A DNA stretch of 39,730 nt, from positions 1-39,730 of the forward strand of contig JBLIRT010000005.1 of NCBI GenBank assembly GCA_049472445.1. Reading direction: 5' to 3'. The translations under genes were made by a program, and so were the position numbers. This stretch comes from a bacterium (GTDB lineage: Bacteria; SZUA-182; DTGQ01). Shown here in pieces: positions 1 through 37,857 of the stretch. The first letter of the stretch is position 1; the number at the start of each line of letters is the position of its first letter. The notes below the pieces were generated by a model. It saw nothing but the letters and a program-made list of their open reading frames with translations, was not told the origin of the DNA and searched no databases.

Positions 1-1342
1 CGGGAGGGATAGGTACATCCATGAGTTTCAGAATGGTGGGAGCAAGGGCGCATATATCAAAGTCGGTCTCTGCGATTTTCCTGCCCTTGATATGGAAGAA
101 GGCATCATGATACGTGTGCATGCCTGTCAATTCAGTTCTGCCGGTTAAAGTGGGCCGATCAAGATTGCCTTTGAGGTCGTATCCATCCTTAGGGATGGCA
201 ATCAAATCCGCAGCTTTATCCAGATGCGGACCATGGTAAATTTCCTCTCTCTTCACCACCCTTTCCAGGATAACCTCTCCCGCTTCAGGATCTTTCATCT
301 CCATCAGGGATTCAATTAACTGGTCGCGAACACTCTCATAGTGCGTACCAGGCTTTATACAACCACAAGGTTCCCGCCCCTCAAGATTGAGAAAGATGCG
401 GCCGGGAATAAGACTATAGGCCATGGTCTCGCGGTGCATCTCCTTGAGGGATGCCTTCTTCTCAGAAGAGAATTTAAGCCAGCCTTTTTCCCGGAGCCAT
501 TGGTTTACATAAACCTCCTGCCGAATTCTACAAAATCCATGATCTGAGAGCAGGATAAATTGAACCTCCGGATGCGGCTTTACAAACTGGTCATAAAGCT
601 CACCTACGAGGTGGTCGATCTTCTGATAAAAGCGGATAAATTCAGTGCCCCATCGAGGGTCATCATCCTCCCAGGCATCCCAGAGAAAATGATTAATACG
701 ATCTGTACCCATGACATGAAGCTGAAAGTAATCCCATTCCTCTTGACGGAGAAAATGCCTGGCTGTGGCAAAGCGCCTTTCCAGGGTCATGTCTAAGTCC
801 TCAAGGAATTTTTGCCTGTCCTTTCTGGCCAGCCAGGCATCCGCATCAATCCGGTAGCCCAAATCCTTGAGCTGAGTAATAACTGAGGATGGATAAGCTG
901 CCTTTTCTAATTTGGTAGTCAAAAAACAGGACACCAGAATCCCATGTACCGGCTTCGGCGGATAGGTAACCGGCACATTCATGACTATCACCCGCTTCCG
1001 GGCCTCACTTAAAATGTGCCACAGGGCGCTGCATTGCATGTTGGAATTGGTCGGTATGTAAGGCTCAAAGGGATTCGGTATTCGATCGATAAAACCATAG
1101 ATGTTGTGTTTGGCCGGGTTTCGCCCGGTCATAAAAGATGACCAGGCCACAGAGGAGACCGTTGGAATTACCGAACGCATCCGTAGAAAGGATCCCTTCG
1201 GATCATGGAAGAAGGCCTGCATCCTGGGAAATTTGCCGTCGTTTTTCGGATGAGTAAGAAAGGTATAGGGCACTCCATCCAGTCCGATGACAAAGACCTT
1301 TTGAGACCTGAATATTCCTTTGAGCTTCGGCAGCCAGGTCAT
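1..1342 (-). CDS. Alkaline phosphatase superfamily protein (type I phosphodiesterase/nucleotide pyrophosphatase-like); 3' end runs off the window
   Basis: Absent from the ORF track because there is no stop in the window. Manual translation from ATG 1342 gives MTWLPKLKGIFRSQKVFVIGLDGVPY...MRSVIPTVSSVAWSSFMTGRNPAKHNIYGFIDR, and near position 1 TGMHT...ALAPTILKLMDVPIPP. The IGLDG, AWxSFxTGxNPxxHxIYGF and GxH motifs are typical of this family. Starts 2 nt after the cysC stop. Confidence 0.88.
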   Translation of the reverse strand, partial: MTWLPKLKGIFRSQKVFVIGLDGVPYTFLTHPKNDGKFPRMQAFFHDPKGSFLRMRSVIPTVSSVAWSSFMTGRNPAKHNIYGFIDRIPNPFEPYIPTNSNMQCSALWHILSEARKRVIVMNVPVTYPPKPVHGILVSCFLTTKLEKAAYPSSVITQLKDLGYRIDADAWLARKDRQKFLEDLDMTLERRFATARHFLRQEEWDYFQLHVMGTDRINHFLWDAWEDDDPRWGTEFIRFYQKIDHLVGELYDQFVKPHPEVQFILLSDHGFCRIRQEVYVNQWLREKGWLKFSSEKKASLKEMHRETMAYSLIPGRIFLNLEGREPCGCIKPGTHYESVRDQLIESLMEMKDPEAGEVILERVVKREEIYHGPHLDKAADLIAIPKDGYDLKGNLDRPTLTGRTELTGMHTYHDAFFHIKGRKIAETDFDICALAPTILKLMDVPIPP

Positions 1343-1344: not shown

Positions 1345-1998
1345 TCAGATATATCCCAGATCCTGTAACCGCTGTTTTATTTTTTCCTCTTCCTCTTCAG
1401 TGTAAACATCATCGCCTTCGGTTGATTGCCCGGCAGCGGCCAGGTTTTCTCCCATAGCCTCCAGGTATCCGAGATTCTGCAAGGCATTCAGAATTTTGCC
1501 TACACTTTCTTCCACTGATTCCTTATCCGTCTCAACCACTACTTCCGGGCTGAGCGGCTCTTCATAAGGGTCGGAAACTCCCGTATAGTTCTTAATCTCT
1601 CCGGCCAGAGCCTTCTTGTATAGTCCCTTAACGTCCCGATTAATGCAGGTATCCAGAGAACATTTTACAAAGACCTCAACGAAGTCTCCGATGAGCTGAC
1701 GATTATGATCCCTGACCGCCCGGTAGGGGGAAATGGCTGAGGCAATGGCAATGACGCCGTTGCGGCTCAGGAGATGACAGACAAAGCCGATTCGTTTTAT
1801 ATTTATATCGCGGTCTTCCTTGCTGAATCCTAATCCTTTGCTGAGGTTGGTACGAACAACATCGCCGTCCAGCAATTCCACCTTAAGCCCTTTATCCCTG
1901 AGCATCTGTTCGATTTTTTGAGCTATGGTCGTTTTACCGGCACCGGACAAGCCGGTAAACCAGAGGGTGAAGCCTTTTTGTCCGCCGTTATATTTCAT
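1345..1998 (-). CDS. cysC: Adenylyl-sulfate (APS) kinase with a C-terminal extension
   Basis: WFTGLSGAGKTT P-loop, LDGDVVR, LGFSKEDRDINIKRIG, ISPY, RDVKGLYKKA, YTGVSDPYEEP. GGAGG RBS upstream. Confidence 0.96.
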   Translation of the reverse strand: MKYNGGQKGFTLWFTGLSGAGKTTIAQKIEQMLRDKGLKVELLDGDVVRTNLSKGLGFSKEDRDINIKRIGFVCHLLSRNGVIAIASAISPYRAVRDHNRQLIGDFVEVFVKCSLDTCINRDVKGLYKKALAGEIKNYTGVSDPYEEPLSPEVVVETDKESVEESVGKILNALQNLGYLEAMGENLAAAGQSTEGDDVYTEEEEEKIKQRLQDLGYI

Positions 1999-2057
1999 AA
2001 GAAATCAATGCCTCCCTTAACAATAGCAAGTAACAATAGCAAGGTTAAAAGCTTGGT

Positions 2058-3230
2058 TTAGGCCTGTGTTTGACGAAGCCCTTGAATTAAAATTTCAGCC
2101 ACTTCCCGCCGGGTGAATTCCAGAGGAGGAATCTCGCCGCGGCTGAGCATTTCCCGCACCTTGGTTCCGCTTAAAAATACATGCGCACTGCTGTCATGAG
2201 GGCATGTTTTGTTTGAAGCCATTCCCCCACATTCCTTGCAGTAAAAGGTATGTTCAAAGAAAAAGGGTGTGATTTCCAGCTCTTTGGGGTCAAATTCCTG
2301 AAAGATATTGTGAGCATCATAGGTTCCGTAATAGTTCCCTACTCCTGCATGGTCCCGGCCGACAATGAAATGTGTGCATCCATAATTTTTCCTCATGATC
2401 GAGTGAAATATAGCCTCCCTGGGGCCCGCATACCGCATATTGACCGGCATGACCGAGAAGAGAGTACGCTGCGGATGATAGTACTTATCAACGATGACCT
2501 CATAGCACCTGATTCGTATATCGGTGGGGATGTCATCGCTTTTTGTTTCCCCTACCAGCGGGTGGAGGAGCAGACCATCTACGACCTCGAGGGCACACTT
2601 TTGAATGTACTCATGGGCACGGTGTACCGGGTTTCTGGTTTGAAAGGCAACGATGGTATGCCAGCCCTTTTCTTTAAATATGGCCCGTGTTTGTCTGGGA
2701 GATAGATTATAGCGGGCGTAAGGGTCGGGTTTTCTTTTGAGCAGATCAATCTTTCCGCCCAGGAGGACCTCCCCCATGGCATAGATCTTCTTAACTCCCG
2801 GGTGTTTATCTTCAGTGGTTTTGAACACCTTTTGGGCTAACCGCTCCCGGTCATAAAAGTATTTGTCGTCAAGAGAGAGAATTGCTGCTGCCTCACCGTG
2901 AGGATCCATGATGGCTATTTCGGAATCCAGTGACAACTGGTCGGCTACTTCCCGGCTTACGTCCAGGGTGATGGGTATCGTCCAGGGAATCCCGCTGGCT
3001 AATCGCATATGTTCAACAACGCTTTCAAAATCGGCCCTACTCATAAACCCCTCAAGGGGGCTGAAGATCCCATCAGCAATGTTTTCAATATCAGTCAGGG
3101 TATCTTGACTGGCCGGGATCTTTGGCAGATTCCGGACCTTTTCCAGGGCCGCTTCCCTGTCCGGCTCATTCAGAACCCGATTAATGAGTGTTCCTCCATG
3201 TGGTTTGATCATGTTATTCTCCCCATCCAT
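2058..3230 (-). CDS. sat: Sulfate adenylyltransferase (ATP sulfurylase, Sat type)
   Basis: PHGG N-terminus, FSPLEGFM, FQTRNPVHRAHEY, MRYAGPREAIFH, GRDHAGVG, Zn site CxxC...CPH, SGTKVR. The true start may be ATG 3212. Confidence 0.96.
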   Translation of the reverse strand: MDGENNMIKPHGGTLINRVLNEPDREAALEKVRNLPKIPASQDTLTDIENIADGIFSPLEGFMSRADFESVVEHMRLASGIPWTIPITLDVSREVADQLSLDSEIAIMDPHGEAAAILSLDDKYFYDRERLAQKVFKTTEDKHPGVKKIYAMGEVLLGGKIDLLKRKPDPYARYNLSPRQTRAIFKEKGWHTIVAFQTRNPVHRAHEYIQKCALEVVDGLLLHPLVGETKSDDIPTDIRIRCYEVIVDKYYHPQRTLFSVMPVNMRYAGPREAIFHSIMRKNYGCTHFIVGRDHAGVGNYYGTYDAHNIFQEFDPKELEITPFFFEHTFYCKECGGMASNKTCPHDSSAHVFLSGTKVREMLSRGEIPPLEFTRREVAEILIQGLRQTQA

Positions 3231-3232
3231 TC

Positions 3233-3478
3233 TTACTGAATATAGCCCAGAGCCCGCAACCGCTTTCGGATCATTTCCATTTCTTCCTGGCTCAAGGCAT
3301 CCTGTTTTTGTAGTTTCCCGCCGGCCACAATATCCCGCAAAACATAAACAACAAATTCTGTCACACTACTGAAACCTGTATCGGCAATTAATTTTATAAC
3401 CTCTTCGTATAATCTCCTGGGAATTTTGATCGTGACTTTTTCTCTACTGTCTCTCTGGCTCATCATACTGCTCTCCAT
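3233..3478 (-). CDS. CopG/ribbon-helix-helix DNA-binding protein with C-terminal RLRALGY tail
   Basis: VTIKIPRRLYEEV...GFSSVTEFVVYVLR has the RHH pattern. First gene of the operon, 2 nt from sat. Confidence 0.85.
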   Translation of the reverse strand: MESSMMSQRDSREKVTIKIPRRLYEEVIKLIADTGFSSVTEFVVYVLRDIVAGGKLQKQDALSQEEMEMIRKRLRALGYIQ

Positions 3479-3541
3479 TCTTTATACTCTATTAGGAATC
3501 TAATAGGAGTGTTAAAACCATACCATGCTGACCTGGACTTG

Positions 3542-4706
3542 TCAATGGGAAAATGGTGGGCTACACGAAGCTACAGAAAAAATCTCCACCTCCGGCGATA
3601 CATTCTTTAAGGCTAATTTTCCCAGGGAATCAAAGGTAAAATATTCATGCAGCCTGTCCACAGTGGATTTTAAGACAAGAATGGCACCTCCGGAAGCAAA
3701 CGCGCTAATGCGTGCCGTCACGTTCGTAACCGTACCCCGTGCAGTATAGGTGCATCGACAACCGGTAAGGCTTTTGAAGGTTGAGATACCCAGGAAGGCC
3801 GTACCCGAGTTGATCCCTATATTGACCACAAGGGTACCAACTATCTCAGGCCTGCAGGCAATCTGCGCGATCCTTTCCCTTATCATCAATGTGGTTCGCA
3901 CCGCCTCCAAGGCATTCGCCTTCCTGTCCTCATTGTGAAAAATGACCATGAGCCCGTCTCCTGTCGTCTCATTCACATCACCATTATTCGCATAAATAGC
4001 CTCAATGAATACCGAAAAATATAATTCCACGATGGCATTGAGACCGGCCCCGTCCAATTTTTCACTTAACAGGCTATAGCCCTGTATGTCAATGAAAAGG
4101 ACTGATACATCCTGCTCCTTCGATTCAGGGAGGGAGGCTGTCGGGGAGATCTCCATCACCTTGGTTACGGTGGCAGGAACGAATTTACAGAGAGTCGCCT
4201 TGATATCTTCCAGAATTTCCACCTTTCTTTCGGCCATCTGCAGCTCATGAAGGGTTGTTCCCAGCAGACAGTGCGTTTACGCAAGGTCCCTGTTCAACTC
4301 ATCGAGTTTGCGGCGCTGAGCATCGACCCTCTCAAAAAGCAGGGCGTTAGACATCCCGATCGCTCCAGCGATGCCTATGGCATCGAGGATCTCCAGGTCC
4401 TCCCTCGAGTACGGCTTCAGGTTCTCCTTCTCACCCAAAAAAACCAGGCCGAGCACGTCCTTACTGTAAATCAGGGGGAGGCAGACCTGCACCCTCTCCT
4501 GCTCGAACCTTCTCCTGGCGATATTCTGGAAGCCCCTGAAGGCCGTGATAAGATCGATGTGGCTCTGGCCGACCGCCGACCTATAGGCGGTGATCTTCTC
4601 GACGAACAGATCCTGCTCATTGATTCCCGGCCCTTTGGTCGGCTCACCAGCAGGCAGGCTGCCTCGGCTCGTCTCCAGGACCTCTCTGCTGTACTGTGTC
4701 CTTCCG
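3542..4706 (-). pseudogene. GAF-coiled coil-class III adenylate/guanylate cyclase pseudogene (in-frame TAA; 5' part removed at the IS66 boundary)
   Basis: Cyclase motifs VLFIDIQGYS, GDGLM, IGINSG and TNVTARI in 3542-4237. The GAF C-terminus (CLPL...LGLVFLGEKENLKPYSREDLEIL) in 4277-4492 is in the same frame, separated by TAA at 4277-4279. The frame stays open upstream to about 4705 and abuts the IS end. Confidence 0.8.
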
Positions 4707-4779: not shown

Positions 4780-5196
4780 ATGAAAGCAGATCACATCTCA
4801 GTTACTAAACCAGCCTTATGTACTAAACCAACCCTGGAAGAGATCAAAAAACAATTTGCTGTGTGGCGCAGCAAGAGAAGATGCCGTGGGTCAGTGCCGG
4901 AAGAGCTATGGGAGGCAGCAGTAGGATTGGCCAAAGACCATCCACCCGCGCAAATCGCAAAGATCTTGGGTTTGGATTATGGAAAATTAAAGAGGAGGAT
5001 TCAGGCCAAAGACGAGTGTGTGATGGAGGGATCTCACCATTTCATTGAATTATCACTTGGGAATCCTGTATCTGATTCTGGGTGTATGATGGAGATTGAA
5101 GATCAAAAGGGTGGCAGGGTCAAGGTGCATATGAGAGAAGGATTTTGTTTGGAGCTGTTGAAATTAGCAGAAGCATTCTGGAGAAGGCAGGTATGA
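4780..5196 (+). CDS. tnpA: IS66 accessory protein TnpA-like
   Basis: FAVWR...VPEELWEAAV..LGLDYGKLK HTH-like segment followed by FIEL. First ORF of the element. Confidence 0.7.
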   Translation: MKADHISVTKPALCTKPTLEEIKKQFAVWRSKRRCRGSVPEELWEAAVGLAKDHPPAQIAKILGLDYGKLKRRIQAKDECVMEGSHHFIELSLGNPVSDSGCMMEIEDQKGGRVKVHMREGFCLELLKLAEAFWRRQV

Positions 5197-5564
5197 TTCA
5201 GATCACACCCCAGATGAGGATATTGGTCGCGGTTGAGGCGGTGGATTTTCGCCGGGGAATAGATGGGATGGCAAAGCTGTGCAGGCAGGTGATGAGATCA
5301 GACCCTTTCTCAGGATATGTGTTTGTATTTGTGAATCGAAGAAAAACATCAATAAAAATATTGAGTTATGATGGCCAAGGGTTTTGGTTATCTCAAAAGC
5401 GATTATCCAAAGGTCATTTTTTGTGGTGGCCAGACAGAACTGACTGTAAAGTAAGTCAGTTAGCAGCTCATGATTTACAGCTTCTGCTGTGGAATGGCAA
5501 TCCAGAGAATGCACACGTGGCACCTATGTGGAAGAGGGTACAGCCACTGGAAGATAGAGTGTAA
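5193..5564 (+). CDS. tnpB: IS66 accessory protein TnpB
   Basis: MIQITPQMRILVAVEAVDFRRGIDG...DPFSGYVFVFVNRR..IKILSYDGQGFWLSQKRLSKGHF. ATG 5193 overlaps the tnpA stop. Confidence 0.92.
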   Translation: MIQITPQMRILVAVEAVDFRRGIDGMAKLCRQVMRSDPFSGYVFVFVNRRKTSIKILSYDGQGFWLSQKRLSKGHFLWWPDRTDCKVSQLAAHDLQLLLWNGNPENAHVAPMWKRVQPLEDRV

Positions 5565-5679
5565 GTATTTTATGCATAAAAACTGTTCTATTATGAGGTT
5601 GACAAGGAGATTGTTTTTATGTAACCTTATGAACTGTTTACAGAAAAGTTCCGCACCATTTTGAAATAGTAAAGAGAAA

Positions 5680-7005
5680 ATGAAACCCCCGCACCGTATA
5701 GAACTTGAGCCCCATCAGGTCGATGCCCTTCGTCAGAGGATAGCAGCACGAGCTTTAGAGGAAGCCGATTATCTGCTCATCGAGGGGATGATCGAGACCA
5801 TCGTTTTCTTAAGCCAAGCCTTAGAAGAGAAGGATATTTCTGTAAAGAGACTTCTTGGGATGATATTTGGCCTAAAGACAGAGAAGGCAAAGAATGTGCT
5901 GGGGAAGTCGCCGGAAGAAGACAAAACCTCTCAAGATCCCGCCGATATCTGCCCTGATGACAAAGAGGGTGATGAGAAAAAAGTGCGCAAGGGGCATGGT
6001 CGAAATGGTGTGGATACCTACAGTGGGGCCGAGAAAGCATTTATTTCTCATGCAACCATCAAATCCGGAGATCCCTGTCCTTTGTGTGTGAAGGGAAAGG
6101 TATATCGGATGAAAACACCCAAAGTTGTGGTGCGGGTGGTGGGAAGGGCACTCCTTACCGCCAGGGTATGGGAGTTGGAGAGCCTGCGCTGTAATCTGTG
6201 TGGTGAGGTATTTACCGCACAGGCACCACAAGAGGTGGGTGAAGAAAAGTATGATGCAACCTGCGGAGCCATGATTGCTCTTTTAAAATATGGAAGCGGG
6301 TTTCCCTTCTATCGGCTGGAGGGGCTTCAAAGGAGCCTTGGTATTCCTTTACCTGCCTCAACCCAATGGGATATAGTAGAGGGGTGTGCCGATAAGATCT
6401 ATCCTGCTTATGAGGAGCTAATAAGACAGGCTGCTCAAGGGCAGGTTCTGCACAATGATGATACGGTGATAAAAGTCCTGGCCTTAATGAAAAGCACCCA
6501 GGATCAAGAAGGCCAAAGAGATGATCCTTCCCGAAAGGGGCTGTTTACCACGGCCATCCTCTCGGTAAAGGAAGGAATAAGAGTAGCTCTCTTTTTTACC
6601 GGTCGAAAACATGCGGGAGAAAACCTGGCTGATGTGCTAAAGAAGAGACAAGCAGGACTAAGCCCACCAATACAGATGTGTGATACTCTCAGTCGAAATC
6701 TTCCCCAAAACCTTAAGACTCTTCTGGCCAATTGCCTGTCGCATGCTCGAAGAAAATTCATCGAGGTGATCTTCTGCTTTCCGGAAGAGTGCCGCCACTT
6801 GGTTGAGGTCTTAGCCAAGGTATATCATTACGATGATATCGCCAAAGAGCAGAACCTCTCAGATGATGAGCGCCTCAAGTTTCATCAGGAGAAAAGCGGC
6901 CCTCTCATGGAGCAGCTCAAGGTATGGGCTGCTTTTGCTATTATCTGTCTTCTTTGCTATTATAATATAAAAGAACATATTCAGCCTGACTGTGACAGGA
7001 AATAA
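5680..7005 (+). pseudogene. tnpC: IS66 transposase TnpC, C-terminally truncated (last ~25 codons read into unrelated DNA)
   Basis: Zinc finger CPLC...CNLCG, PFYRLE, LHNDDT, MCD and CLSHARRKF are present. The C-terminal DNNxxER catalytic-Glu region is absent. Confidence 0.85.
6935..6966 (+). promoter_or_regulatory. Putative sigma70 promoter for the cysteine hydrolase
   Basis: TTGCTA-17 nt-TATTAT with an extended TG, plus an overlapping TATAAT at 6961, immediately after the IS breakpoint. Confidence 0.45.
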
Positions 7006-10141: not shown

Positions 10142-10599
10142 TTTAAAATCCTCCTTGCTTCTTTTTTTCATTTGAAAAATTCATTGACCCTCTCCTTGGT
10201 ATGCCTGTTGAGTATGAGGGCTTCATGTTTCAGGTATGAGGCATAGACACATCACCTCCTTTTCAGCTTGGAACCGTTGATAATCTTAAGAAGCTTAAGA
10301 ATAATAGAAATGATATGAAATATTACAATTATAATTATATAAAATTTTAATATGGTGTTTATCATCTTAGACGAATTGAACAAAAAGTAATTACGCAAAT
10401 ACAAGAAGGAAGAAGAAAATTTTTAAATCAATTTTATTTGAAATTTATTAGTAATATATAGTATAATAATAGTATATATATTTATTTAATATTTCATACT
10501 TCTATTTATTACTTATAATTTATTCCCGATTATTTTTACTCCTCCATGAAAAGTACTCATGGCTAAGATGAGAGATAACTATCTTACGTTATCCCTTTC

Positions 10600-11679
10600 A
10601 TGAAATCATCACTTCATCATAGAAAGGAGAGCCTTACCATGTCTTCAGGAGAAGAAAGTACTATAAACGTTCCATTTATCAATCCTTTTGGCAAGACTGC
10701 CGCAAGCCAGGTCTTTTTTTTCTCCCTTTTGATTATATTTATGGCCGTTTCCCCTGCTCAATCCTGCTTCCCACCGGGGCAACCAGCAAAAGGCCCCGGC
10801 GGCTCAGACTATTCGTATAATGCAATTATCTGTAATCTTTACGGGAGTGGTGCCCAGGGATATTATCTTTTCGAACCCGTAGTCGAATCGGATGAACAAA
10901 GGCCGGAATCTTTACCTGTGATTGTCTTTGTCCATGGATTGCTCCTAACCAACCCGGATATTTATGGCGGATGGATTAACCACATAGTAAGAAAGGGTAA
11001 TATTGTTATCTTTCCGATATACCAAACGTTATTCACCCCTTATGGTCATTTTGTCACCAACGTCATGGCCTCAATTAAGGCAGCTCTTGAAGAGTTACAT
11101 CGGGACGATCATATAAGGCCGGATACAACAAAGTTTGCCTTAGTTGGCCACTCCTGCGGTGGAGTACTCGTTGTCAACGTTGCTGCTTTGGCCGGAAGCG
11201 CAGGGTTACCTCTTCCTGATGCTATCATGGCCGTTGCTCCAGGGCTCTCATCAGCAATTGGTTTTGAGAATTTAAGGGAAATTGATTCTGGAACTCTTTT
11301 ACTGGCGACAGCAGGTGATGCAGACTTCATGACCAGAGATGTTGATGCAAGGGCGATTTATCAGGGCACTACTAACATCCATCCTGATAATAAAGATCTT
11401 GTTATCTTTCGTTCAGATTACCATGGATTTCCCTTTCTGGTGGCCGGCCATTTTGCACCTTGCGGTTCAACGTCTGATTGCGGCCTTTGTATTGGTATTG
11501 ACGCTCTCGATTATTATGGCTACTGGAAATTATTCGAGGCACTCACTGATGCTGCCTTTGATAAGATAAACCGGGAATATGCACTTGGAAATACTGATGA
11601 ACAGCGCGACATGGGTGATTGGAGCGATGGCACTTGTGTGAATGAACTGATTGTTCTTGATCTCGATGCTGAGCCTTAA
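10600..11679 (+). CDS. Alpha/beta hydrolase (chlorophyllase/lipase-like), probably exported
   Basis: PVIVFVHG, nucleophile elbow GHSCGG, candidate Asp (GDAD) and His (AGHFAP); hydrophobic signal-like stretch. The start may be ATG 10639 (AAGGAG RBS). Confidence 0.82.
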   Translation: MKSSLHHRKESLTMSSGEESTINVPFINPFGKTAASQVFFFSLLIIFMAVSPAQSCFPPGQPAKGPGGSDYSYNAIICNLYGSGAQGYYLFEPVVESDEQRPESLPVIVFVHGLLLTNPDIYGGWINHIVRKGNIVIFPIYQTLFTPYGHFVTNVMASIKAALEELHRDDHIRPDTTKFALVGHSCGGVLVVNVAALAGSAGLPLPDAIMAVAPGLSSAIGFENLREIDSGTLLLATAGDADFMTRDVDARAIYQGTTNIHPDNKDLVIFRSDYHGFPFLVAGHFAPCGSTSDCGLCIGIDALDYYGYWKLFEALTDAAFDKINREYALGNTDEQRDMGDWSDGTCVNELIVLDLDAEP

Positions 11680-24598: not shown

Positions 24599-27451
24599 CT
24601 AGCCGGCCATTACCTCCAAATTCTCCGGTTTCGATATCTTATGCCTCTTCATCTTTCGCCACAGGGTTGTCCGGCTGATACTCAGTTTCATAGCTGCCCT
24701 GGAGATATTCCATTGACAATTCTCCAAGGTATCAAGCAGAGTTGATTTTTCAGTACCTGTCATTAATTCCTGCATGGAAGGGGTTTTTTCCATTTCAAAG
24801 ACAGGATCAAGGTTGGTTATTTCTGCCGGGAGATCCCTCACCTTAATTTCCAGATCACGGCAGCGGATGACTGCATATTCTATCGTATTTTCCAACTGGC
24901 GAACATTCCCGGGCCAGTCATATTCCCACAATATATTTAAGGCCTTCTGAGAGATACCTTTAATCTGTTTCCCGATTTTGGTATTCATCTTTTGAATAAA
25001 ATGCTCTGCCAGCAAAGGAATATCTTCTTTTCTCTCCCGTAAGGAGGGAACAGTGATCGGCACCACGTTCAGGCGGTAATACAAGTCCTCCCGGAACGTT
25101 CCCCTGGCTACAGCATCTTTCAAATCCTTATTGGTAGCTGCAATAATTCGAACATCGATCTTAATCCTTTCTCTGCCTCCCACTCTTACAATTTCCCGTT
25201 CCTGGACAACCCGAAGCAATTTGATTTGCTCATTCAGGTTGATATCCCCAATCTCATCGAGAAAAATGGTCCCCCCATTGGCCTGCTCAAAGCGGCCCGG
25301 TTTATCACTGATAGCGCCGGTAAAGGCTCCCTTGACATGTCCAAACAGTTCACTCTCCAGCAAGTGCTCAGACAGCACCGAGCACGTCACCTCAACAAAG
25401 GGATAATCACACCGGGGGCTGTGGTAGTGAATGGCCTGGGCGATCAATTCTTTTCCCGTTCCGCTTTCACCTTTCAACAGCACCGTACTGTTATTTTGAG
25501 AGACGGTATTGATCAGATCGTAGATTTCCAGCATCTTCATACCGTTGCCGATGATGTTGCCAAACTGGTATGTCTTTATCTTAGCTTCCGATCTTCTTTC
25601 CTGCCAATCCCGCAGTTGCTCCTCCAGCCTCTTTCTTTCGGAAATATCCCGGCCGATGCCCATGATTTGGGTTATTTCTCCCTTTTTCCCCAGGAATGGC
25701 GTCTCATTAATTTCCAGAAAAATCTTTTTGCCATCCCTGGTCAAAAATTCAGTCCAATAAGGCTCAAGAGGCTCCCCCCTGGTACATAGCCGAATAGGTG
25801 ATTCCATAAAGCTTTGGTTAATCGGGTTTGAACTGAGAATTTTTTCTTCAGGGAGACTCTTGAATTCCTCCGGCGAGTATCCAAGGATACGCTGAACCGC
25901 ATGGCTGACAAAGGTAATGGCACCCTGAGGGTTACGGATAAAAATCAAGTCATTGGTTGTATTGATCAGGGTATTTAATTTATCCCGCTCTTCCTTGATT
26001 TCTCGCTCTGCCTCTGTTTTTTCCCGAATGTCCCGGGCGATGCCGACAATTTCCAAAAGGTGCTGTTCTTCATCCAGCATGGGCCATCCTAAAAAGCTGA
26101 CAGGAATGGTTTCGCCGGATTTCGTGACCATGGCACAGGAATGATCATCGATTACTCCTCTTTGAGCGATAGTATCGAGATCTATCTCTTTCAAGGGGCA
26201 ATTCTTTTGAAAGAGACAATCAAATGGCTTGCCTATCAATTCATCTCTCTCATACCCTAATATCTTCAAGGTAGCCTGGTTGACAAAGGTGATTCTTTGC
26301 TCGGGCGAAATAATGATCAGAAGGTCGTGGATGGTGTTAATAATGGAGTGAAAATAATTTTTGGAAATCAAGGTACGCTGTAGATTTTCATTCATGGCAT
26401 TGAAAGCCTTCGATAGGGTTATGAGCTCCTTGTGGGAGTCTATTTCCTCTCTGGTGGTCAAATCTCCTGCCGACACACGATGAGTGGCTTGAATTAATTG
26501 CTCAATGGGGCTGGTTATTCCCTTACTGATGAGGAAGCCGAGGAAGAGAAGTAACGTTCCTCCTATGATGCCGGCCCACAGCAGTTTCAGAATAATTTTT
26601 CTGAGGCTTTTCTTTTTATCCTGCAGGCTTGAGGCAAGCATGAGAGTTCCCACGGTTTGTCCCCGGATGTCTTGAAAAGGAAAAGAAAGCGCATGATACT
26701 GGGTGTCGTAGATATAAATCTGCTCGAAGGCCTGTGGTGATTTTTTCCTGGCCTGAAGAATGCTTTCCTGGATTTCCGGCGGAATGGAGAGTGACTCGCC
26801 TGCTTTGGTGGGAATAGTACTGAAAATAGCCTTGACACCTTTAAAAATCAAAACATCCAGGCCGGTCAGCCGGTGTATTTTTCTAAAAAAATCATCACCG
26901 AGAAAACGGATGGCGGATACATATCCCATGATTACACCCGGAGAATGATAAACAGGAGAGATTATTTTCAAGATAAAACCCTGACCTGTATTGCCAAATC
27001 CGAAAATATCCCCGGTAATTTCCCCTTTTCCAATCAGGCCCTGGAATTCACGTATCTCTTCTGCCCTTTGATTGAGCGGGGAATTCTGCTGAGCCACTAA
27101 TTTTCCCCTCTCATCAAAGAGGGCGATGAGATCAAGGTCGAGATCATGTTGCCACCTGGACAGATGAGCAGAAAATTCCTTCCGGTCTTCCCTCATATTC
27201 TGCAAGATATCCGGAAAAATGGCACTGGACATACAACGTAACATCTGTTTCAGATGGTGTATCTCGTCAGGCAGAAGCTCTTTCTCCAGGAATTGTATTT
27301 GGGCCGCTATTCTCTTATTTATGGCCTTATCAAGTTCCTGGTCAACTATTTTTGTTTCCATACCCATATGAGTCAGAAAGAGAGTAAGAAATACCAGGAG
27401 AAAGGGGATTAAAATGCCTTTCAATATGGTATTCGGCTTCTTTTTATCCAT
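24599..27451 (-). CDS. Membrane-anchored one-component sigma54 activator (TM, extracytoplasmic Cache-like sensor, TM, HAMP, PAS, PAS, AAA+, Fis-type HTH)
   Basis: Two TM helices, HAMP (ITSPIEQL...GDL...EL..LSKAFNAM), two PAS domains ending RDI, GESGTGKE, ESELFGHVKGAFTGA, FLDEIG, FREDLYYRL, WPGNVRQL, HTH ISRTTLWRKM. No receiver or kinase domain. Confidence 0.94.
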   Translation of the reverse strand: MDKKKPNTILKGILIPFLLVFLTLFLTHMGMETKIVDQELDKAINKRIAAQIQFLEKELLPDEIHHLKQMLRCMSSAIFPDILQNMREDRKEFSAHLSRWQHDLDLDLIALFDERGKLVAQQNSPLNQRAEEIREFQGLIGKGEITGDIFGFGNTGQGFILKIISPVYHSPGVIMGYVSAIRFLGDDFFRKIHRLTGLDVLIFKGVKAIFSTIPTKAGESLSIPPEIQESILQARKKSPQAFEQIYIYDTQYHALSFPFQDIRGQTVGTLMLASSLQDKKKSLRKIILKLLWAGIIGGTLLLFLGFLISKGITSPIEQLIQATHRVSAGDLTTREEIDSHKELITLSKAFNAMNENLQRTLISKNYFHSIINTIHDLLIIISPEQRITFVNQATLKILGYERDELIGKPFDCLFQKNCPLKEIDLDTIAQRGVIDDHSCAMVTKSGETIPVSFLGWPMLDEEQHLLEIVGIARDIREKTEAEREIKEERDKLNTLINTTNDLIFIRNPQGAITFVSHAVQRILGYSPEEFKSLPEEKILSSNPINQSFMESPIRLCTRGEPLEPYWTEFLTRDGKKIFLEINETPFLGKKGEITQIMGIGRDISERKRLEEQLRDWQERRSEAKIKTYQFGNIIGNGMKMLEIYDLINTVSQNNSTVLLKGESGTGKELIAQAIHYHSPRCDYPFVEVTCSVLSEHLLESELFGHVKGAFTGAISDKPGRFEQANGGTIFLDEIGDINLNEQIKLLRVVQEREIVRVGGRERIKIDVRIIAATNKDLKDAVARGTFREDLYYRLNVVPITVPSLRERKEDIPLLAEHFIQKMNTKIGKQIKGISQKALNILWEYDWPGNVRQLENTIEYAVIRCRDLEIKVRDLPAEITNLDPVFEMEKTPSMQELMTGTEKSTLLDTLENCQWNISRAAMKLSISRTTLWRKMKRHKISKPENLEVMAG

Positions 27452-28440
27452 TATACCTCTTCAATTCCTGCCTTTTCATTCAAAACTGAAACCTGACTAC
27501 CCTCTGCACCTTTCGAGGACAGAATGCCTACCCCTGAAAAACAGAGGAGAAAGGTAGCCATCGTGCCAAAGGTCCCTCCAAGGATTTTGGCCAGCTTTTG
27601 ATTCTTGATACCAGGAAGATGATAGTCCGGGATTGGCGCATGATAGGGGGCTATAATCTGAGGTGAGTTTACCTGAACACGGTTTAGGGCAAACTTTTTC
27701 AATCCGTCAGCAGATCTGGAAGCACAGGGTGAAATAACCAGACTAATCAGCAAGGCCATACTGAGCAGGACATAGGCTGTCTTCCGGGATGATCTTAATG
27801 AGTCCTGGCCTTGATAATGAGGGCCTCTTGGAGCCAGGAGCCGGAAACAACCCAGAAGAAAAACGGTCAGAATCCCTTCGGCAATTCCAACTTCTACATG
27901 AGGGCCCAGCATAGGGCTGATAGTGCCTGAAAATTTTTCAATTTCACAGATGGCTAACATTCCGCAGACTGTCAAGCTGGTAATTAACAGGGTGAGCCAG
28001 GCTGAAAGAAACGCACTCAGGTAGCTGCCATACGGCTCAATGACCAGGTTTTTCAGCAGTGAGTAAAGATAGTATCCTCCGAAGGTACTGACGCAAACAA
28101 TAGTCAGCAAATTGGGTCCGAAGGCCATGATCCCACCATCTTGAAAAATAAGGACCTGGATAATGTGGGCAAGTGTCATGACTATGGTGGCCAGGTAAGG
28201 GCCAAGGACAAGAGAGGCAAAAACACCTCCCATAAAGTGACAGGAAGAGCCGCGAGTTACTTCAAAATTAGCCATTTCCAGGGCAAAACAAAAGGCTCCT
28301 ATAGAGCCGGCTAATAAGACCTCATGGGTGGTATCTACCTTTTTCCAGATTTTCTTCAGGCTGTAAGCCAGAACTCCCCCACAGGCCAGATCCATAACCA
28401 GACAAAGGCCGTTACTATAGAATCCATCCGGAGCATGCAT
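27451..28440 (-). CDS. CbiM/NikM-like ECF S-component fused to a PDGLE-like domain
   Basis: ATG 28440 gives MHAPDGF; SCHFMGG, QVLIFQDGGIMAFGPN, HVEVGIAEGILT; ASRSADGLK...APIPDY (PDGLE-like). The stop overlaps the activator start (TAATG). Confidence 0.85.
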   Translation of the reverse strand: MHAPDGFYSNGLCLVMDLACGGVLAYSLKKIWKKVDTTHEVLLAGSIGAFCFALEMANFEVTRGSSCHFMGGVFASLVLGPYLATIVMTLAHIIQVLIFQDGGIMAFGPNLLTIVCVSTFGGYYLYSLLKNLVIEPYGSYLSAFLSAWLTLLITSLTVCGMLAICEIEKFSGTISPMLGPHVEVGIAEGILTVFLLGCFRLLAPRGPHYQGQDSLRSSRKTAYVLLSMALLISLVISPCASRSADGLKKFALNRVQVNSPQIIAPYHAPIPDYHLPGIKNQKLAKILGGTFGTMATFLLCFSGVGILSSKGAEGSQVSVLNEKAGIEEV

Positions 28441-28568
28441 TATTGGTGTGGCCCTCTCTTTCCTGAAATGAAAAGGTGTGTTGCACAGGAGGCTCATTTA
28501 TTTTATTCGGCAGGAACATGCTTTTTCATAAGGAAATCCTTTCAATTTTTACCTCTTGATCGTTTCTT

Positions 28569-28864: not shown

Positions 28865-29251
28865 ATGCGGTCTAAGGGGGGTATAGGAATAGCCATGTTT
28901 GTTCTGGGATTTTTGACGGCTGTAACGATGCCATATGGAGTCGCACGGAATGCGTACGCCCAAGGTAATAAGAAAAAAGATGTGTTGCAACTGGCTGAGG
29001 CCGGCAAGGTTTTACTCAGGGAAGGAAATTGCCTCATGTGCCACTCCTTGAATGGGGAGGGCGGGAACTCTGGAAAGGCTACAGATATAAGCGGCCTGGG
29101 TATACGCTATGAGCGGTCCGATTTGCGGGAATTGTTAATTAAGCATCTTTTTAAAAAGCCTGACATCAAAAGGTATGAGGGAGTATTTACTGAAGAAGAC
29201 ATTGAGGCACTGACTCAATATCTTTCCACCGTAAAAAATCCCGGCTTCTAA
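28865..29251 (+). CDS. Exported monoheme c-type cytochrome
   Basis: AAGGAG RBS; signal peptide; GKVLLREGNCLMCH; C-terminal TEEDIEALTQYL helix. Confidence 0.88.
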   Translation: MRSKGGIGIAMFVLGFLTAVTMPYGVARNAYAQGNKKKDVLQLAEAGKVLLREGNCLMCHSLNGEGGNSGKATDISGLGIRYERSDLRELLIKHLFKKPDIKRYEGVFTEEDIEALTQYLSTVKNPGF

Positions 29252-29345
29252 AAATGGTAGCCTCACTTTGGTAAAGTTATTATAACAGATAAGAAAAGCT
29301 GAAAAGGTTCTTCACTTAAGTCAAGGTACGTTGGAGCGTAATATC

Positions 29346-29816
29346 ATGGAGCTTATCGTTGTGGAATCGAATAAGACGCTGAAATCTTCTCTGGCAGCTA
29401 TGACTCGCCGGATTTTCCTGAACATTCTTTCGAAAGGAATCTGGGGAGGTATCATGGTGTATCTCCTTTATCCCATCGTCCATTTTCTCATCCCCCCTAA
29501 AGAATCTTCCCGCGACCTGGATATTGTTCAACTGAATGCGACCGAAGTTGAGGTTGGAAAAGCCAAAATCATCAGCTATCAAGATACTCCAACCATAGTT
29601 ATTAATACGAGCCAGGGAGTTCTTGCTCTTTCGGCTGTGTGTACTCATCTGGGATGTATTGTTCAATGGGATGAGAGCAAGCAGGAGATCGTTTGTCCCT
29701 GCCATGGTGCAAAGTATGACCTTAATGGAAATGTGATAACAGGCCCTGCACCGAAACCGCTAGCTATGGTCAAGGCCAGAATGATAGATGATAAAATTTA
29801 TATCGGAGAGGCTTGA
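29346..29816 (+). CDS. Rieske [2Fe-2S] protein (bc/b6f type) with a Tat-like anchor
   Basis: TRRIFL plus a TM helix; CTHLGC, CPCHG and GPAPKPL. Start uncertain (29331, 29346 or 29400). Confidence 0.92.
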   Translation: MELIVVESNKTLKSSLAAMTRRIFLNILSKGIWGGIMVYLLYPIVHFLIPPKESSRDLDIVQLNATEVEVGKAKIISYQDTPTIVINTSQGVLALSAVCTHLGCIVQWDESKQEIVCPCHGAKYDLNGNVITGPAPKPLAMVKARMIDDKIYIGEA

Positions 29817-29899
29817 TCCCACCAAAATCAGAATTTATGTTATTCGCTCTTTATTCTCACTCATTGGCTGAAGCTGAATATGGTATATGTGGAGGAACT

Positions 29900-31570
29900 A
29901 TGCGCAGCGACTTTTCACGTGGATGGTACGAAACGGTTATTCTTGCCTTGGGGGCTATTCTTACCGCTTTCTTATTTGCTTTTGGATGCGGCGGCAGTTC
30001 ATCATCTGATGATAGCCGAATCATTTCTGAATTTTCTGAAAAATCGAACCTTCCGACTGGTATTACCATTTCAGGAACATTAGGCTCTCTATTTTATGTC
30101 AAGTCTCTGTTTAAAGGGTCGGGCAACCCAGGGCCGGATGGTACGGCAGGGCCGCCCGCTAATGCTCCCGGCCCAGGCAGTATGGAAGATACATCAGGAG
30201 ATGAGGACGTATCCACGGAAACCGAATCCTCAGAGACCGATGTGGCCACAGGAAGCAGCCCTCCGGATGGCATGCCAGGCCCTCCGGCTGGCACCTCAGG
30301 CCCTTCGGATGGAACTGCCGGTCCCCCGGACGGCACCCCAGGACCTCCGGACGAAACTGCCGGCCCTCCGAATAATACGACAGGGACAGGTACCGGCCCC
30401 GGTTCAGGAAGTGGTACAGGGAGAGGCGGCAGAACCGCAGGTATCAGTATCAGTCAATATCCCCTGGCCATGGTTTTGGAGGGGACTACCTTATACGGTG
30501 TTCCTGATCTGATGGGATCTTTTAAGATTCAAACATGCCCTGCCGGAGATTATACCCTGGTTTTATATAGCTATGGAGAGGTAATAGCCAAAAAATACAT
30601 CCGCATATCTGCCAAGTACGATCTTACGTTGGGTGAAATAACAGATGTTGACGAGGATGGATTTCTGATCTGTAATGGCTTTGATGGGTATCGTTTCCCC
30701 TGGAAAGATGATGATGGGGATGGGGTTAACGATAATTTCACCGATGCTGACGGGGATGGAATAAATGATCTGACCGGCCAGGCTTATACACACGGATGTG
30801 GCTGGCAGGATGCTGACGGGGATGGGATCAATGATCATCTTATCGATGCTGATGGTGATGGAATCAATGATATTACCGGCCGTAGCTATGGTTTTACCTT
30901 TGGTTTCATTGATCAGAATGATGATGGATTACATGATCTTTTTCAGGATAATAATGGAGATGGAATTAATGATCTTCATGGAGTGGCTTATGCCCATGGA
31001 TTCGGCTGGCAGGATGCTGATGATAATGGGATAAATGATAATTTTACTGATGCTGATGGCGATGGAGCCAACGATCTGACCGGCCGACCGGTTATTTATG
31101 GATATCGGTTTGGATTTGTCGATTCAAATGGAGATGGAATCAACGACAACTTTGCTGATGCTGATGGAGACGGAATCTGTGATCAGGGAACGCCCTGCCA
31201 GGGAATGCCTTACGCCCATGGATTCGGCTGGCAGGATGCTGATGATAACGGAATCAACGATAATTTCACCGATGCTGACGGGGATGGAGTCAGAGATCTG
31301 ACCGGCCTGGGCTATACATATGGAAGAGATCGATACAGCTTTCATGACCAGGATGGAGACGGGCAAAATGATTCTTTCATGGACAGGAACGGTGACGGCA
31401 TCAATGATAAGTTTGCCGATGCCAACGGTGATGGTATCAATGATCTGGAAGAGGGGGATTCCTTCCGTCATGGCTTTGGCTGGCAGGATGAGAATAGAGA
31501 TGGAATCAATGATAATTTTACCGATACTGATGGCGATGGTATCAACGATCTTACAGGAATTCCTTATTGA
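29900..31570 (+). CDS. Lipoprotein with a Pro/Gly-rich linker and many DxDGDG Ca-binding-type repeats
   Basis: GGAGGA RBS before ATG 29900; lipobox FAFG-C; DGTAGPP repeats; repeated HGFGWQDADDNGINDNFTDADGDG units. Confidence 0.82.
   Translation: MRSDFSRGWYETVILALGAILTAFLFAFGCGGSSSSDDSRIISEFSEKSNLPTGITISGTLGSLFYVKSLFKGSGNPGPDGTAGPPANAPGPGSMEDTSGDEDVSTETESSETDVATGSSPPDGMPGPPAGTSGPSDGTAGPPDGTPGPPDETAGPPNNTTGTGTGPGSGSGTGRGGRTAGISISQYPLAMVLEGTTLYGVPDLMGSFKIQTCPAGDYTLVLYSYGEVIAKKYIRISAKYDLTLGEITDVDEDGFLICNGFDGYRFPWKDDDGDGVNDNFTDADGDGINDLTGQAYTHGCGWQDADGDGINDHLIDADGDGINDITGRSYGFTFGFIDQNDDGLHDLFQDNNGDGINDLHGVAYAHGFGWQDADDNGINDNFTDADGDGANDLTGRPVIYGYRFGFVDSNGDGINDNFADADGDGICDQGTPCQGMPYAHGFGWQDADDNGINDNFTDADGDGVRDLTGLGYTYGRDRYSFHDQDGDGQNDSFMDRNGDGINDKFADANGDGINDLEEGDSFRHGFGWQDENRDGINDNFTDTDGDGINDLTGIPY
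30705..31560 (+). repeat. Intragenic tandem repeats encoding D-x-D-G-D-G-I-N-D units
   Basis: GCCCATGGATTCGGCTGGCAGGATGCTGATGATAA recurs at about 30992 and 31214; degenerate units of roughly 32-40 aa throughout. Confidence 0.8.
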
Positions 31571-31897
31571 AATAAGAATATGCTCACCCAATAATAGCTC
31601 CAGGAGAAGCCTATGATAAAGGTTATGTTCAGACTTCCGCGTTCTGGTTTCTGAAATGGAGAAGTATGAAGAAGTATGTACCGAAAAATAAATCGAGATG
31701 TTCGTTCAATGTCTATCCGTCCTGAAGGCTTCATCTCCGAAATAAGCTATGCTTTGGCTATAATATTTAATATGCTGTTTATCTTATGAAAAAGGTAAAG
31801 TATGATAGATCGACATCAATGTTTTCATGTCTTAACTCTGTTGGGGGCGCTCCAGGTAAGGTACTTTTCTAGGTAAAATACTTATGATGGGATATGT

Positions 31898-33205
31898 ATG
31901 AATAGATACAGAGGAAAATTCATTACCTTACTTGGCCTTTTTTTGGTGATACTGATTATCTTTCAGGGGATTGGAAAAGCGGCCGGGCAAAGTGATGCGG
32001 AGAAAAAATCTAGCAGGAAAAGCCCAAAAAAGAAAAAAATCACCTGCATCACCTGTCATAATCACCTGGGTAAAGACAAAGCCGAATGGGTTAAACAGTG
32101 GCAGGAAAGTGTCCATGGGAAAAGCGATGTCTCGTGTCCGGACTGCCATGGGGGAAATCCTGCTTCCTTTAATAAGCCTAAAATCGAGGGAACAAATTTT
32201 AGAGGAAAGCCTTCACGTCTGGAAATTCCCGAATTTTGTGGTTCCTGCCATTCAGACCCCGCCCGGATGCGGCAGTTTCAAAAACGAATCGATCAGCTTG
32301 CCCAATATAAAACCAGCAGGCATGGGATAGGTTTGTTTCAGGCTAAGGATACGAAGGTAGCCGTATGTGTAGATTGCCATGGAAGACATGATATCGCCAA
32401 AGTCAGTGAATCTTCCTCTCCGGCTCATCATGGGAACATTGCCGAAACCTGCGGTGGATGCCACGCCAACAGCGATTACATGTCGCCCTATGGCCTTCCC
32501 ACAGATCAACTTACCTGCTACTATAAGAGTTACCACGGGATGATTATGAAAAATAAGATAGAAGGCAAAAATCCATCCCTGGTGCCCTCCTGCCCGGATT
32601 GTCACAGTCCTCATGGGCCTAAACCACCTGAAGTGTCTGAAGTGTCCAACATTTGTGGAAATTGTCATATGAATACGGCCAAATATTTTCATGAGGGAGA
32701 ACATAAAATCGCCCTGGAAGAACAAAACACTCCCAGATGCATTGATTGCCATGATAATCACGAGATAATTTTTCCCACCACCGAACTTTTTACGGGAGAA
32801 TCAGAGCATCATTGCGGCTTTTGCCATGCGACCACCTCGGAAGCTTATCAAAGGGGGCTTCGAATGAAAAAGGCACTGGAAAAGGCGGAGCAGGAAATAC
32901 ATGAAATAGAAAAAATAACTCACCAGCTTCAAAAAAAGCCTGGATATGACCCAAGGGACTTCGAAGAAAACATCCAGAAAGCCAAGCAAAGTATGGTACA
33001 GGCCATTCCGATAACTCACGTATTAAAAGAGGAAGAGGTAGCCCAATATACGGATGAAGCCCTTGCTTTCACACAAGATATCAGACACATGATTGATAGG
33101 GTAGGTGAGGAGTTAAGGAAGAGAAAAAAGTACCTTATGGCCAGTCTGGTAATTATTCTCATGATCATTTGCTTTTTATGGTATAAGCGGTCACGCATTG
33201 CCTAA
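31898..33205 (+). CDS. Multiheme cytochrome c (9 CxxCH) with a coiled coil and a C-terminal membrane anchor
   Basis: CITCH, CPDCH, CGSCH, CVDCH, CGGCH, CPDCH, CGNCH, CIDCH, CGFCH; N-terminal signal; C-terminal TM followed by YKRSR. Confidence 0.92.
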   Translation: MNRYRGKFITLLGLFLVILIIFQGIGKAAGQSDAEKKSSRKSPKKKKITCITCHNHLGKDKAEWVKQWQESVHGKSDVSCPDCHGGNPASFNKPKIEGTNFRGKPSRLEIPEFCGSCHSDPARMRQFQKRIDQLAQYKTSRHGIGLFQAKDTKVAVCVDCHGRHDIAKVSESSSPAHHGNIAETCGGCHANSDYMSPYGLPTDQLTCYYKSYHGMIMKNKIEGKNPSLVPSCPDCHSPHGPKPPEVSEVSNICGNCHMNTAKYFHEGEHKIALEEQNTPRCIDCHDNHEIIFPTTELFTGESEHHCGFCHATTSEAYQRGLRMKKALEKAEQEIHEIEKITHQLQKKPGYDPRDFEENIQKAKQSMVQAIPITHVLKEEEVAQYTDEALAFTQDIRHMIDRVGEELRKRKKYLMASLVIILMIICFLWYKRSRIA

Positions 33206-34459: not shown

Positions 34460-34581
34460 ATGGGTAAAGGCAGTCCAGCCATGGAGAAGAGGCCTCTCGG
34501 GGCTATGATTCAGGATTATTCCGGAATAAGAACGTTTTTATGAACCTGTAACCAGTAACTATAACTATGGGGAGATACTTT

Positions 34582-35394: not shown

Positions 35395-35450
35395 TATTGC
35401 TTATTGAACAGGAGTGGCTTCCGGACGGCCATTCCGCACATCCGGATAAT

Positions 35451-35478
35451 CCTCCCTTGCCTCTTTCGGCAAGGGAGG
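35451..35478 (+). other. Intercistronic GC-rich hairpin
   Basis: CCTCCCTTGCC-tctttc-GGCAAGGGAGG perfect 11-bp stem with no U-tract. Confidence 0.6.
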
Positions 35479-35524
35479 TGAAGACTTTATGGAGAAATGA
35501 ACAGACAGAAAGAGGGGATTTTCA

Positions 35525-36178: not shown

Positions 36179-36217
36179 TCACAGAGTACTTGAGCGTTTT
36201 CTCAAAAAGGAGTCTAC

Positions 36218-36832: not shown

Positions 36833-37035
36833 TTGCCCTTTTTTCTTTTCTTTTTTCGATCCTTGGATTCCCCGGAGGGCTTAACGTAGTCTATGCTCTG
36901 GCCAGTGGAGATGAGGCACTCATAGTTCATCGTATTGAGCTGCCGACCTATTTTCTCCTCTTTATTATTCTCGGATTGATGGCCATTGCCTGGGGAGTTT
37001 TGAAAATTTTCCGCCATGTGGACCATGACCGTTAA
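36829..37035 (+). CDS. Small membrane protein coupled to cbiM
   Basis: ATGA overlap with the cbiM stop; two hydrophobic segments; ends RHVDHDR. Confidence 0.55.
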   Translation: MIALFSFLFSILGFPGGLNVVYALASGDEALIVHRIELPTYFLLFIILGLMAIAWGVLKIFRHVDHDR

Positions 37036-37844: not shown

Positions 37845-37857
37845 GGGAGCCTTATTC

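Follow-up and report, generated by a model that had tools for sequence, protein, structure and literature searches.

Why do unrelated proteins encoded in one operon end in the same short peptide? This question is raised by a 39,730-nucleotide stretch of bacterial DNA (GTDB lineage SZUA-182, DTGQ01; assembly GCA_049472445.1, contig JBLIRT010000005.1), hereafter the window, which is the whole of contig C155 of a 2.85-Mb genome (G000) that is 77% complete. On its minus strand, behind a sigma-70-like promoter, lie in this order the genes for a ribbon-helix-helix (RHH) protein, the ATP sulfurylase Sat, the adenosine 5'-phosphosulfate (APS) kinase CysC and a PF01663 enzyme from the superfamily of alkaline phosphatase (AP), AlkP-A, truncated at the contig end. 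An earlier note, written from the sequence alone, had described a common C-terminal tail on the RHH protein and CysC and proposed that it is a portable docking or oligomerisation peptide of a sulfation complex. The data below indicate that this tail, here named the LGY tail, is real, widespread and apparently unpublished, and that it is apparently a variant of the portable pathway tag with a regulon added. We consider, with a probability of roughly one half, that it is a docking peptide read by tail-less AlkP-A and AlkP-B enzymes.

The two protein ends are as the earlier note had read them. The product of the first gene, a CopG-like putative repressor of the RHH1 subfamily (3233..3478, minus strand; assigned from its sequence and homologues), terminates in LSQEEMEMIRKRLRALGYIQ, the tail being its final 20 residues (3236..3295). 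In CysC (1345..1998, minus strand), the native last helix (..NLGYLEAM) is followed by a 16-residue linker (1405-1452) and then by the terminal YTEEEEEKIKQRLQDLGYI, the tail covering the final 19 residues (1348..1404). The two tails are identical at 10 of 19 residues, and in a BLASTP comparison of both proteins this stretch is the sole similarity (13/30 identities, E 7e-6 for the pair). The consensus R-L-x-x-L-G-Y-[ILM] caps a segment with an acidic half, a basic half and one hydrophobic face. Of the 3,800 closed open reading frames (ORFs) of at least 100 residues in this genome, four have the motif at their end; by chance, as judged from C-termini that were shuffled, 0.025 would do so. CysC is a genuine APS kinase by profile (PF01583, 210 bits versus a cut-off of 21.1; NF002059, 281.9 versus 244), and its alignments to solved CysC structures stop at residue 170-183 of 217, short of the tail; the protein carries a variable native cap plus an invariant tail, the Tyr count for the cap being rough since about 9 of 53 rows were mis-registered in parsing. 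The window RHH protein has no Pfam match of its own and no NCBIfam model above cut-off; several homologues carry PF01402, as does its paralogue on contig C207 (22.7 bits versus 20.5). Its gene probably starts at 3463 or 3466, the Atlas protein beginning at residue 5.

The tail is a terminal feature of its host proteins. A DNA pattern for the tail, designed without a stop codon, matched at least 119 stretches in metagenomes; 80 were fetched and 79 had a host ORF (38 RHH-like, 23 CysC, 14 AP-superfamily and 4 other), and in 79/79 the motif lay 0-1 residues from the stop. When proteins were retrieved by their core alone, the tail was present in 18/18 RHH1 proteins and in 120/120 members of AlkP-T, a tailed PF01663 type. 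Its Tyr is kept in 119 of these 120 tails (Phe in 0) and in 51/51 CysC tails; the L..LGY repeats of peptidoglycan-binding domains likewise keep Tyr (20/21). No Pfam, NCBIfam or PDB entry covers the tail, the best PDB chain found with the tail profile having an E-value of 0.12. PF08823 is touched weakly by 10 of 39 tails, with an E-value of 0.002 at best and, for the CysC tail of the window, 13.7 bits versus a cut-off of 21.1, and an identity as a peptidoglycan-binding domain (PF01471/PF08823) was rejected as no whole-domain match exceeded the cut-off. A Shine-Dalgarno or ribosome-binding-site artefact was also excluded: all four Gly codons are used (106/99/89/62), an ATG follows the Gly codon at 6-16 nt in 43/356 tails only, and tails are found on the last genes of operons as well. 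The tail is undescribed, and 'RLRALGY' is without a match, in the literature covered, subscription journals and supplements lying outside that coverage.

The earlier note had called for a profile of the tail, a table of its hosts and evidence that the tail recurs within operons elsewhere. Such recurrence was indeed found, in operons for sulfate activation from numerous lineages of both bacteria and archaea. In the best 80 of 351 RHH loci (Thermodesulfobacteriota, Chloroflexota, Planctomycetota, ANME-1 archaea, Methanosarcinales and others), the tail is present on 107/108 RHH proteins, 27/30 PF01507 proteins (CysD plus two resembling reductases of 3'-phosphoadenosine 5'-phosphosulfate, PAPS), 9/20 CysC, 2/13 DUF2061 proteins and 1/10 ABC ATPases. 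Sat (0/20) and CysN (0/24) lack it, and so do the PF01663 proteins (1/37 tailed, the exception being a longer, separate type). Hence RHH, CysC, AP-superfamily, CysD and ABC ATPase folds, which are unrelated, carry the same tail, in keeping with the portability first proposed. The genome under study holds five further terminal copies, on two RHH-like proteins, a 537-residue AlkP-T, an orphan ABC ATPase, and the CysA of an sbp-cysTWA operon (TIGR00968 above cut-off). A profile search of 1.84 billion representatives returned 330 matches; the best 150 include many stand-alone peptides of 30-67 residues, of which some may be pieces cut off at a contig edge, together with 4 false positives (peptidoglycan-binding repeats in 3 cases). 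Near-identical strings of 15-19 residues occur on RHH proteins, CysC, AlkP-T and free peptides. With the strict tail pattern, no viral contig matched; among 72,556 plasmid records, there was 1 match. Distant bacteria most often have the operon RHH-sat-alkP-B-cysC-alkP-A, in which RHH and CysC alone are tailed; a second type is RHH-RHH-cysD-cysN-short alkP.

Several individual loci extend this host range. Natural fusions join Sat to AlkP-B (L170:1236-3833) and CysC to an RHH protein with its tail (L141:3231-3995). At L119:1-459, a partial protein of 152 residues, from a further family that is unannotated, has the tail as its end, and alkP-B follows directly. Short PAPS-reductase-domain proteins with the tail lie beside sulfatase-family genes in Methanoperedens-like and euryarchaeal loci (L057:6889-7482 and L075:2747-3412). 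On a plasmid of the cultured haloarchaeon Halomarina, a possible experimental host, an RHH-like tail protein annotated as hypothetical is encoded in a glycosyltransferase-sulfatase cluster (NZ_CP100449.1; L337:9001-9237).

It had been expected that the neighbouring AlkP would carry the tag. This was not the case, as none of 119 AlkP-A homologues is tailed. Since the homologues closest to the window protein (69-73% identity) end about 11 residues beyond the contig edge, the window AlkP-A (2..1342, minus strand), from which the edge removes ~11 C-terminal residues, is almost certainly tail-less; the contig was not usefully extended by any sequencing run. RNA contigs from one run overlap the RHH gene, sat and cysC in part, although transcription is not demonstrated by them. 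The pattern is the reverse of that proposed: the AlkP-A, -B and -C enzymes of these operons are tail-less and look like readers of tails borne by their neighbours. AlkP-A has a Ser nucleophile motif, PTVSSVAW, with a conserved Asp/His metal-ligand set, and AlkP-A, -B and -T retain the Ser/Thr nucleophile and the metal ligands. All belong to PF01663, and models of AlkP-B and AlkP-T adopt a nucleotide pyrophosphatase/phosphodiesterase (NPP)-like fold (AlkP-B against Xac NPP: Z 30.4, rmsd 3.4, 346 residues aligned; AlkP-T against ENPP1: E 2e-17). A formylglycine sulfatase identity was rejected, for which the signature would be CxPxR/SxPxR, given PTVSSVAW in AlkP-A and, in the motif-bearing sulfatases with tetratricopeptide repeats (sulfatase-TPR proteins), T-L-P-S-H and the lack of CxPxR in the first 200 residues.

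Tail and tail-less enzymes co-occur. Among 301 genomes, 53 have a tail match, obtained with a profile trained in part on sequences of G000, G001 and G004: 40/47 genomes with AlkP-A or AlkP-B, versus 13/254 with neither (28/35 versus 13/254 after removal of 12 genomes of the same class). PF01663 proteins of any kind are present in 138/301. At the locus level, AlkP-A accompanies 9/9 tailed CysC, and 10/11 tail-less CysC have neither A nor B, two of the contigs in that comparison stopping just past cysC. G006, G009 and G012 have lost sat-cysC by deletion; what remains of CysC is its tail, joined in frame to the end of the RHH tail and immediately followed by alkP-A. G010 and G011 retain the full operon, and G009 and G012 possess other sat and tail-less cysC genes. 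The AlkP-B family also carries the tail in cis, in a CysC-AlkP-B-tail fusion (L133:1883-4051) and an AlkP-B-tail fragment (L130); in L122 and L155, by eye, decayed CysC genes with intact tails stand beside alkP-B. For the AlkP-B-tail part of the L133 fusion, AlphaFold2 gave a tail pLDDT (its per-residue confidence) of 87-90 up to the last residues with the linker below 50, a prediction that fits docking on AlkP-B; in an AlkP-T host, the tail helix had a pLDDT of 40-56 and the core was above 90.

The tailed RHH protein appears to have its own operator. An 18-bp palindrome, ACACTCYWATWRGAGTGT, is conserved upstream of RHH1 genes, often in tandem, and is placed just past bacterial -35/-10 boxes or archaeal TATA-like boxes. 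It occurs within 4 mismatches in 56/78 RHH1 upstream regions versus 0.3 in shuffles, the motif being derived from these same regions; out of sample, in 588 kb of loci, 12/12 sites above 15 bits precede RHH1 (9), tailed CysD (2) or TauE (1). In the window, two overlapping copies form a predicted operator (3484..3512; 16.1 bits at 3495-3512 and 10.6 bits at 3484-3501) between the -10 box of the promoter (TTGACA-17-TATGGT, 10/12 match, extended TG; 3517..3545, minus strand) and the start codon. The RHH protein would thus bind this site and regulate the operon, as judged from sequence. The 16.1-bit site is the second best of the genome and lies over the promoter region; however, sites above 15 bits are not enriched genome-wide (2 versus 6.0 in shuffles), so that its assignment rests on position and conservation. 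The best site of the genome, at 22.9 bits (a score reached in 0/10 shuffled genomes), precedes the tailed orphan ABC ATPase gene on contig C101. Close relatives of this ATPase have the tail in 4/4 and the operator in 3/4 cases; distant homologues, including that of G264, which has the RHH system, have neither (0/4 and 0/4). A single contig of G008 bears both the operon and an operon with a tailed cysA, and the sites there score 16.1 and 13.9 bits. A search with the exact operator pattern in 5 relatives gave 5 sites, below the reversed control, and none preceded a recognised regulon gene. The operator is new here, as is the coincidence, in part, of tail and regulon.

Two further observations concern these sites. 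The orphan ABC ATPase is encoded in an operon with a CobW/HypB-like GTPase and an Fe-S protein (C101:22802-25281, L084; also G005:C49, L294), which suggests that the operon has an unrecognised role in sulfur metabolism. Elsewhere in the window, an operator-like AT-rich site of 14.1 bits (10458-10475), within the range of chance, lies 142 nt before a gene for a chlorophyllase-like hydrolase (10600-11679).

The tail is a predicted mobile terminal helix on unrelated pathway members, encoded beside enzymes whose family carries the same tail in cis; a docking peptide is therefore the simplest account. The tail would be a short amphipathic helix, capped by LGY and carried on a linker predicted to be disordered, which on RHH, CysC, CysD, CysA and sulfatase-fold enzymes would plug in trans into the tail-less, NPP-like AlkP-A or AlkP-B of the same operon. 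Through docking, the enzymes acting on activated sulfate would be physically linked to sulfate import, to the synthesis of APS and PAPS, and to the repressor, and one site could then serve both assembly and feedback. Of the sulfation complex first proposed, the portable peptide has stood and a docking role fits the evidence, while the tag on AlkP itself has fallen.

A number of observations weigh against this docking reading. Sat and CysN are untagged, and 13 of the 53 tail-positive genomes contain neither AlkP-A nor AlkP-B; nor was AlkP-B found in the 77%-complete genome studied here. The tailed CysC proteins are not independent (43/46 in one clade of a quick tree), so that their association with AlkP-A largely reflects shared descent. 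In G006, which is 97% complete, tails and AlkP-A are present and neither Sat nor CysC was found, and the RHH-tail-tail fusion could simply derive from recombination between two LGYLP-like stretches. The alignment behind the AlkP-B fusion model held 26 tail-only rows of 77, and its pLDDT is a local value without a matched control. Five sulfatase-TPR proteins of G000 (contigs C88, C124 with two, C146 and C52) have an internal RLxSLGY between two domains; at least 2/5 have lipoprotein-like starts, and in such apparently exported proteins the motif is beyond reach of a cytoplasmic reader, which calls for a reader outside the cytoplasm or for action within their own oligomer. As for the regulon, the gain of a tail on the ABC ATPase is one event, and no operator of 11 bits or more precedes the tailed genes on C207, C106 and C90, or CysA in G002; as an operator of at least 10 bits is found at 10/18 RHH1 genes, the overlap between tail and regulon is partial.

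A tentative alternative, which extends docking without excluding it, is a covalent role for the tail, as a carrier of sulfuryl groups or as a site of modification. AlkP-A and -B would move sulfate from PAPS (or APS) onto the Tyr of the tail; on sulfatase-fold transferases, the aryl sulfate would swing into the active site as the direct donor, and on RHH, CysC, CysD and CysA the sulfated Tyr would be a feedback mark. Possibly, then, bacteria and archaea have a sulfotyrosine system, in which tail-less NPP-like enzymes load LGY tails that act as immediate donors for a large clade of mis-named, glycan-sulfating 'sulfatases' of the Agl30/Agl31 type (described below) and that, when carried by the repressor, CysC, CysD and CysA, signal PAPS status as feedback in a regulon so far undescribed. 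The near-invariant Tyr in AlkP-T and CysC tails, the flexible linker and mobile helix, the stand-alone tail peptides, and T-L-P-S-H in place of CxPxR in the three sulfatase-TPR proteins with an intact N-terminus are consistent with this. PAPS reductases have a Cys-bearing carrier arm at their C-terminal position, and two PF01507 proteins end in the tail at that place. In the main text of PMC11980604, the part of that paper at hand, the mechanism of glycan sulfation by Agl30 and Agl31 is unstated and the words PAPS, tyrosine and donor occur 0 times; C-terminal Tyr shuttles have a precedent in DltX and PatA, according to the available part of PMC12148441. However, the constancy of Tyr is no proof of chemistry, as the peptidoglycan-binding repeats illustrate, and neither ABC ATPases nor a repressor require a carrier arm.

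Tail-tail binding appears unlikely. Here, acidic and basic halves would pair antiparallel and form homo- or hetero-oligomers of tagged proteins without a dedicated reader, as the charge pattern and the hydrophobic face would allow. This would work for exported hosts too, and C-terminal arms do drive oligomerisation in choline sulfatase and in phosphonate monoester hydrolase (PMH), as described in the portion of PMC5870055 available to us. However, it leaves unexplained the tight link to tail-less AlkP-A/B, the retention of the tail before alkP-A and the ordering predicted in the single-tail AlkP-B fusion.

It is quite improbable that the tail tags its hosts for degradation or stability, with a protease adaptor reading it so that the sulfate-activation proteins are turned over jointly. 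Its terminal position would suit such a tag, as would its presence on regulon members that differ in fold and its acquisition along with the operator, but as many as about 11 additional residues beyond the tail are tolerated, the motif occurs internally in apparently exported proteins, and C-terminally tagged Agl30 and Agl31 stay active (PMC11980604, as far as available). Moreover, when the 80 RHH loci were inspected, their gene clusters showed no recurring protease or adaptor family, apart from 3 loci in which hslUV-like genes lie on the opposite strand.

Least probable of all is that L..LGY is a common helix cap arisen separately in each family with host-specific structural roles (in CysC by duplication of the last helix, in CysD by drift of the native end): native CysC does end in a similar cap (8a8h ends KLGYL), canonical CysD (1zun) has MEEKKRQGY as its end at the corresponding place in the alignment, and peptidoglycan-binding repeats do score among the best profile matches, but the near-identical strings on unrelated hosts, the excess of motif-ending termini in one genome, the confinement of hosts to sulfate-related proteins and the coexistence of native cap and tail in CysC argue against it. 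The related end helices of canonical CysD and CysC may be the origin of the tail.

Other parts of this genome and of the window deserve mention. A tailed AlkP-T is encoded within a polyketide synthase cluster comprising acyltransferase, dehydratase, acyl carrier protein and hydrolase genes (G000:C106:1-6095, L082; G002:C71, L330), which hints at sulfation of a polyketide or lipid. A recurring operon (G000:C90:3-2597, L083; L286, L289, L290, L292) encodes two tail-less PF01663 proteins of 640-750 residues, an RHH-like tail protein of 65-80 residues and a membrane protein of roughly 270 residues; here the system may exist in a form that works across the membrane. Within the operon of the window, Sat (2058..3230, minus strand; PF01747 and NF003166 above cut-off) is without a tail, and the cysC stop codon is 2 nt ahead of the AlkP-A start. 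Upstream of the operon, three ORFs at 4780-7005 (138, 139 and 441 residues) resemble by eye an IS66-type element. Taken with one ORF at 3542-4237 that has an adenylate/guanylate cyclase domain and another at 4277-4492, this may mean that a cyclase gene has been split. Two CbiM genes, CbiQ, two ABC ATPases and a DUF4198 protein (27451-28497 and 34567-39443) point to nickel/cobalt uptake, and genes for a cytochrome c, a Rieske protein and a multiheme cytochrome (28865-33205) lie near them.

Sat or CysDN and CysC stand beside unexplained PF01663 enzymes in many uncultured bacteria and archaea, ANME-1 included. The tail, its candidate tail-less readers and the shared operator link these proteins as one system for the supply and use of activated sulfate, and provide a handle on how sulfatase-fold proteins such as Agl30 and Agl31, which have no classical PAPS-binding fold, sulfate glycans. 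With tail and operator as markers, thousands of 'sulfatase/phosphodiesterase' genes may also be re-annotated.

How does the LGY tail compare with known systems? Agl30 and Agl31 (VNG1056C and VNG1057C) of Halobacterium salinarum are AP-fold proteins shown genetically to sulfate an archaeal glycan (PMC11980604), and, in the part of that paper at hand, translated reverse primers give the ends HLEDLGYL and LEELGYT (and KELGYIE for VNG1063H). They are thus similar in fold, in glycan sulfation and in an LGY cap known here for the last 7-8 residues, and that part of the paper contains no discussion of the tail or of the sulfate donor. The arms of the AP-superfamily enzymes SmCS, SpAS1 and RlPMH are also helical C-terminal extensions past the core that reach another subunit, and in SmCS the active-site entrance as well (PMC5870055, seen in part); however, these arms are family-specific and act within a homo-oligomer, whereas the LGY tail also occurs as a free peptide and on proteins with RHH, kinase, PP-loop or ABC folds. 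Of the 79 hosts, 61 are RHH-like or CysC; no PDB chain falls under E 0.12, and structure alignments stop at residue 480 or earlier, before the tail. The Tyr acyl shuttles DltX and PatA, as far as PMC12148441 was available, share an invariant Tyr near the C-terminus, a fused or microprotein form and envelope-modification pathways; they differ by their FXYXXF motif, acyl chemistry and partners (membrane-bound O-acyltransferases, MBOAT, and SGNH proteins), and they are not known on regulators. The LGY tail has the invariant C-terminal Tyr and lacks FXYXXF. Portable targeting peptides are known from microcompartment encapsulation, encapsulin cargo, and clamp- and SSB-binding motifs. With these, the tail shares one short terminal motif on unrelated pathway proteins and a common, here putative, reader, but the 80 RHH loci contain no recurrent family of shell or scaffold proteins and the candidate reader is an enzyme. 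Finally, the RHH protein resembles autorepressors of the CopG/MetJ/Arc type (PF01402) in its beta-alpha-alpha pattern and in the conserved, tandem palindromic operators over its own promoter; unlike these, it bears an LGY tail, and its predicted operator is shared from bacteria to archaea and between sulfate import and sulfate activation.

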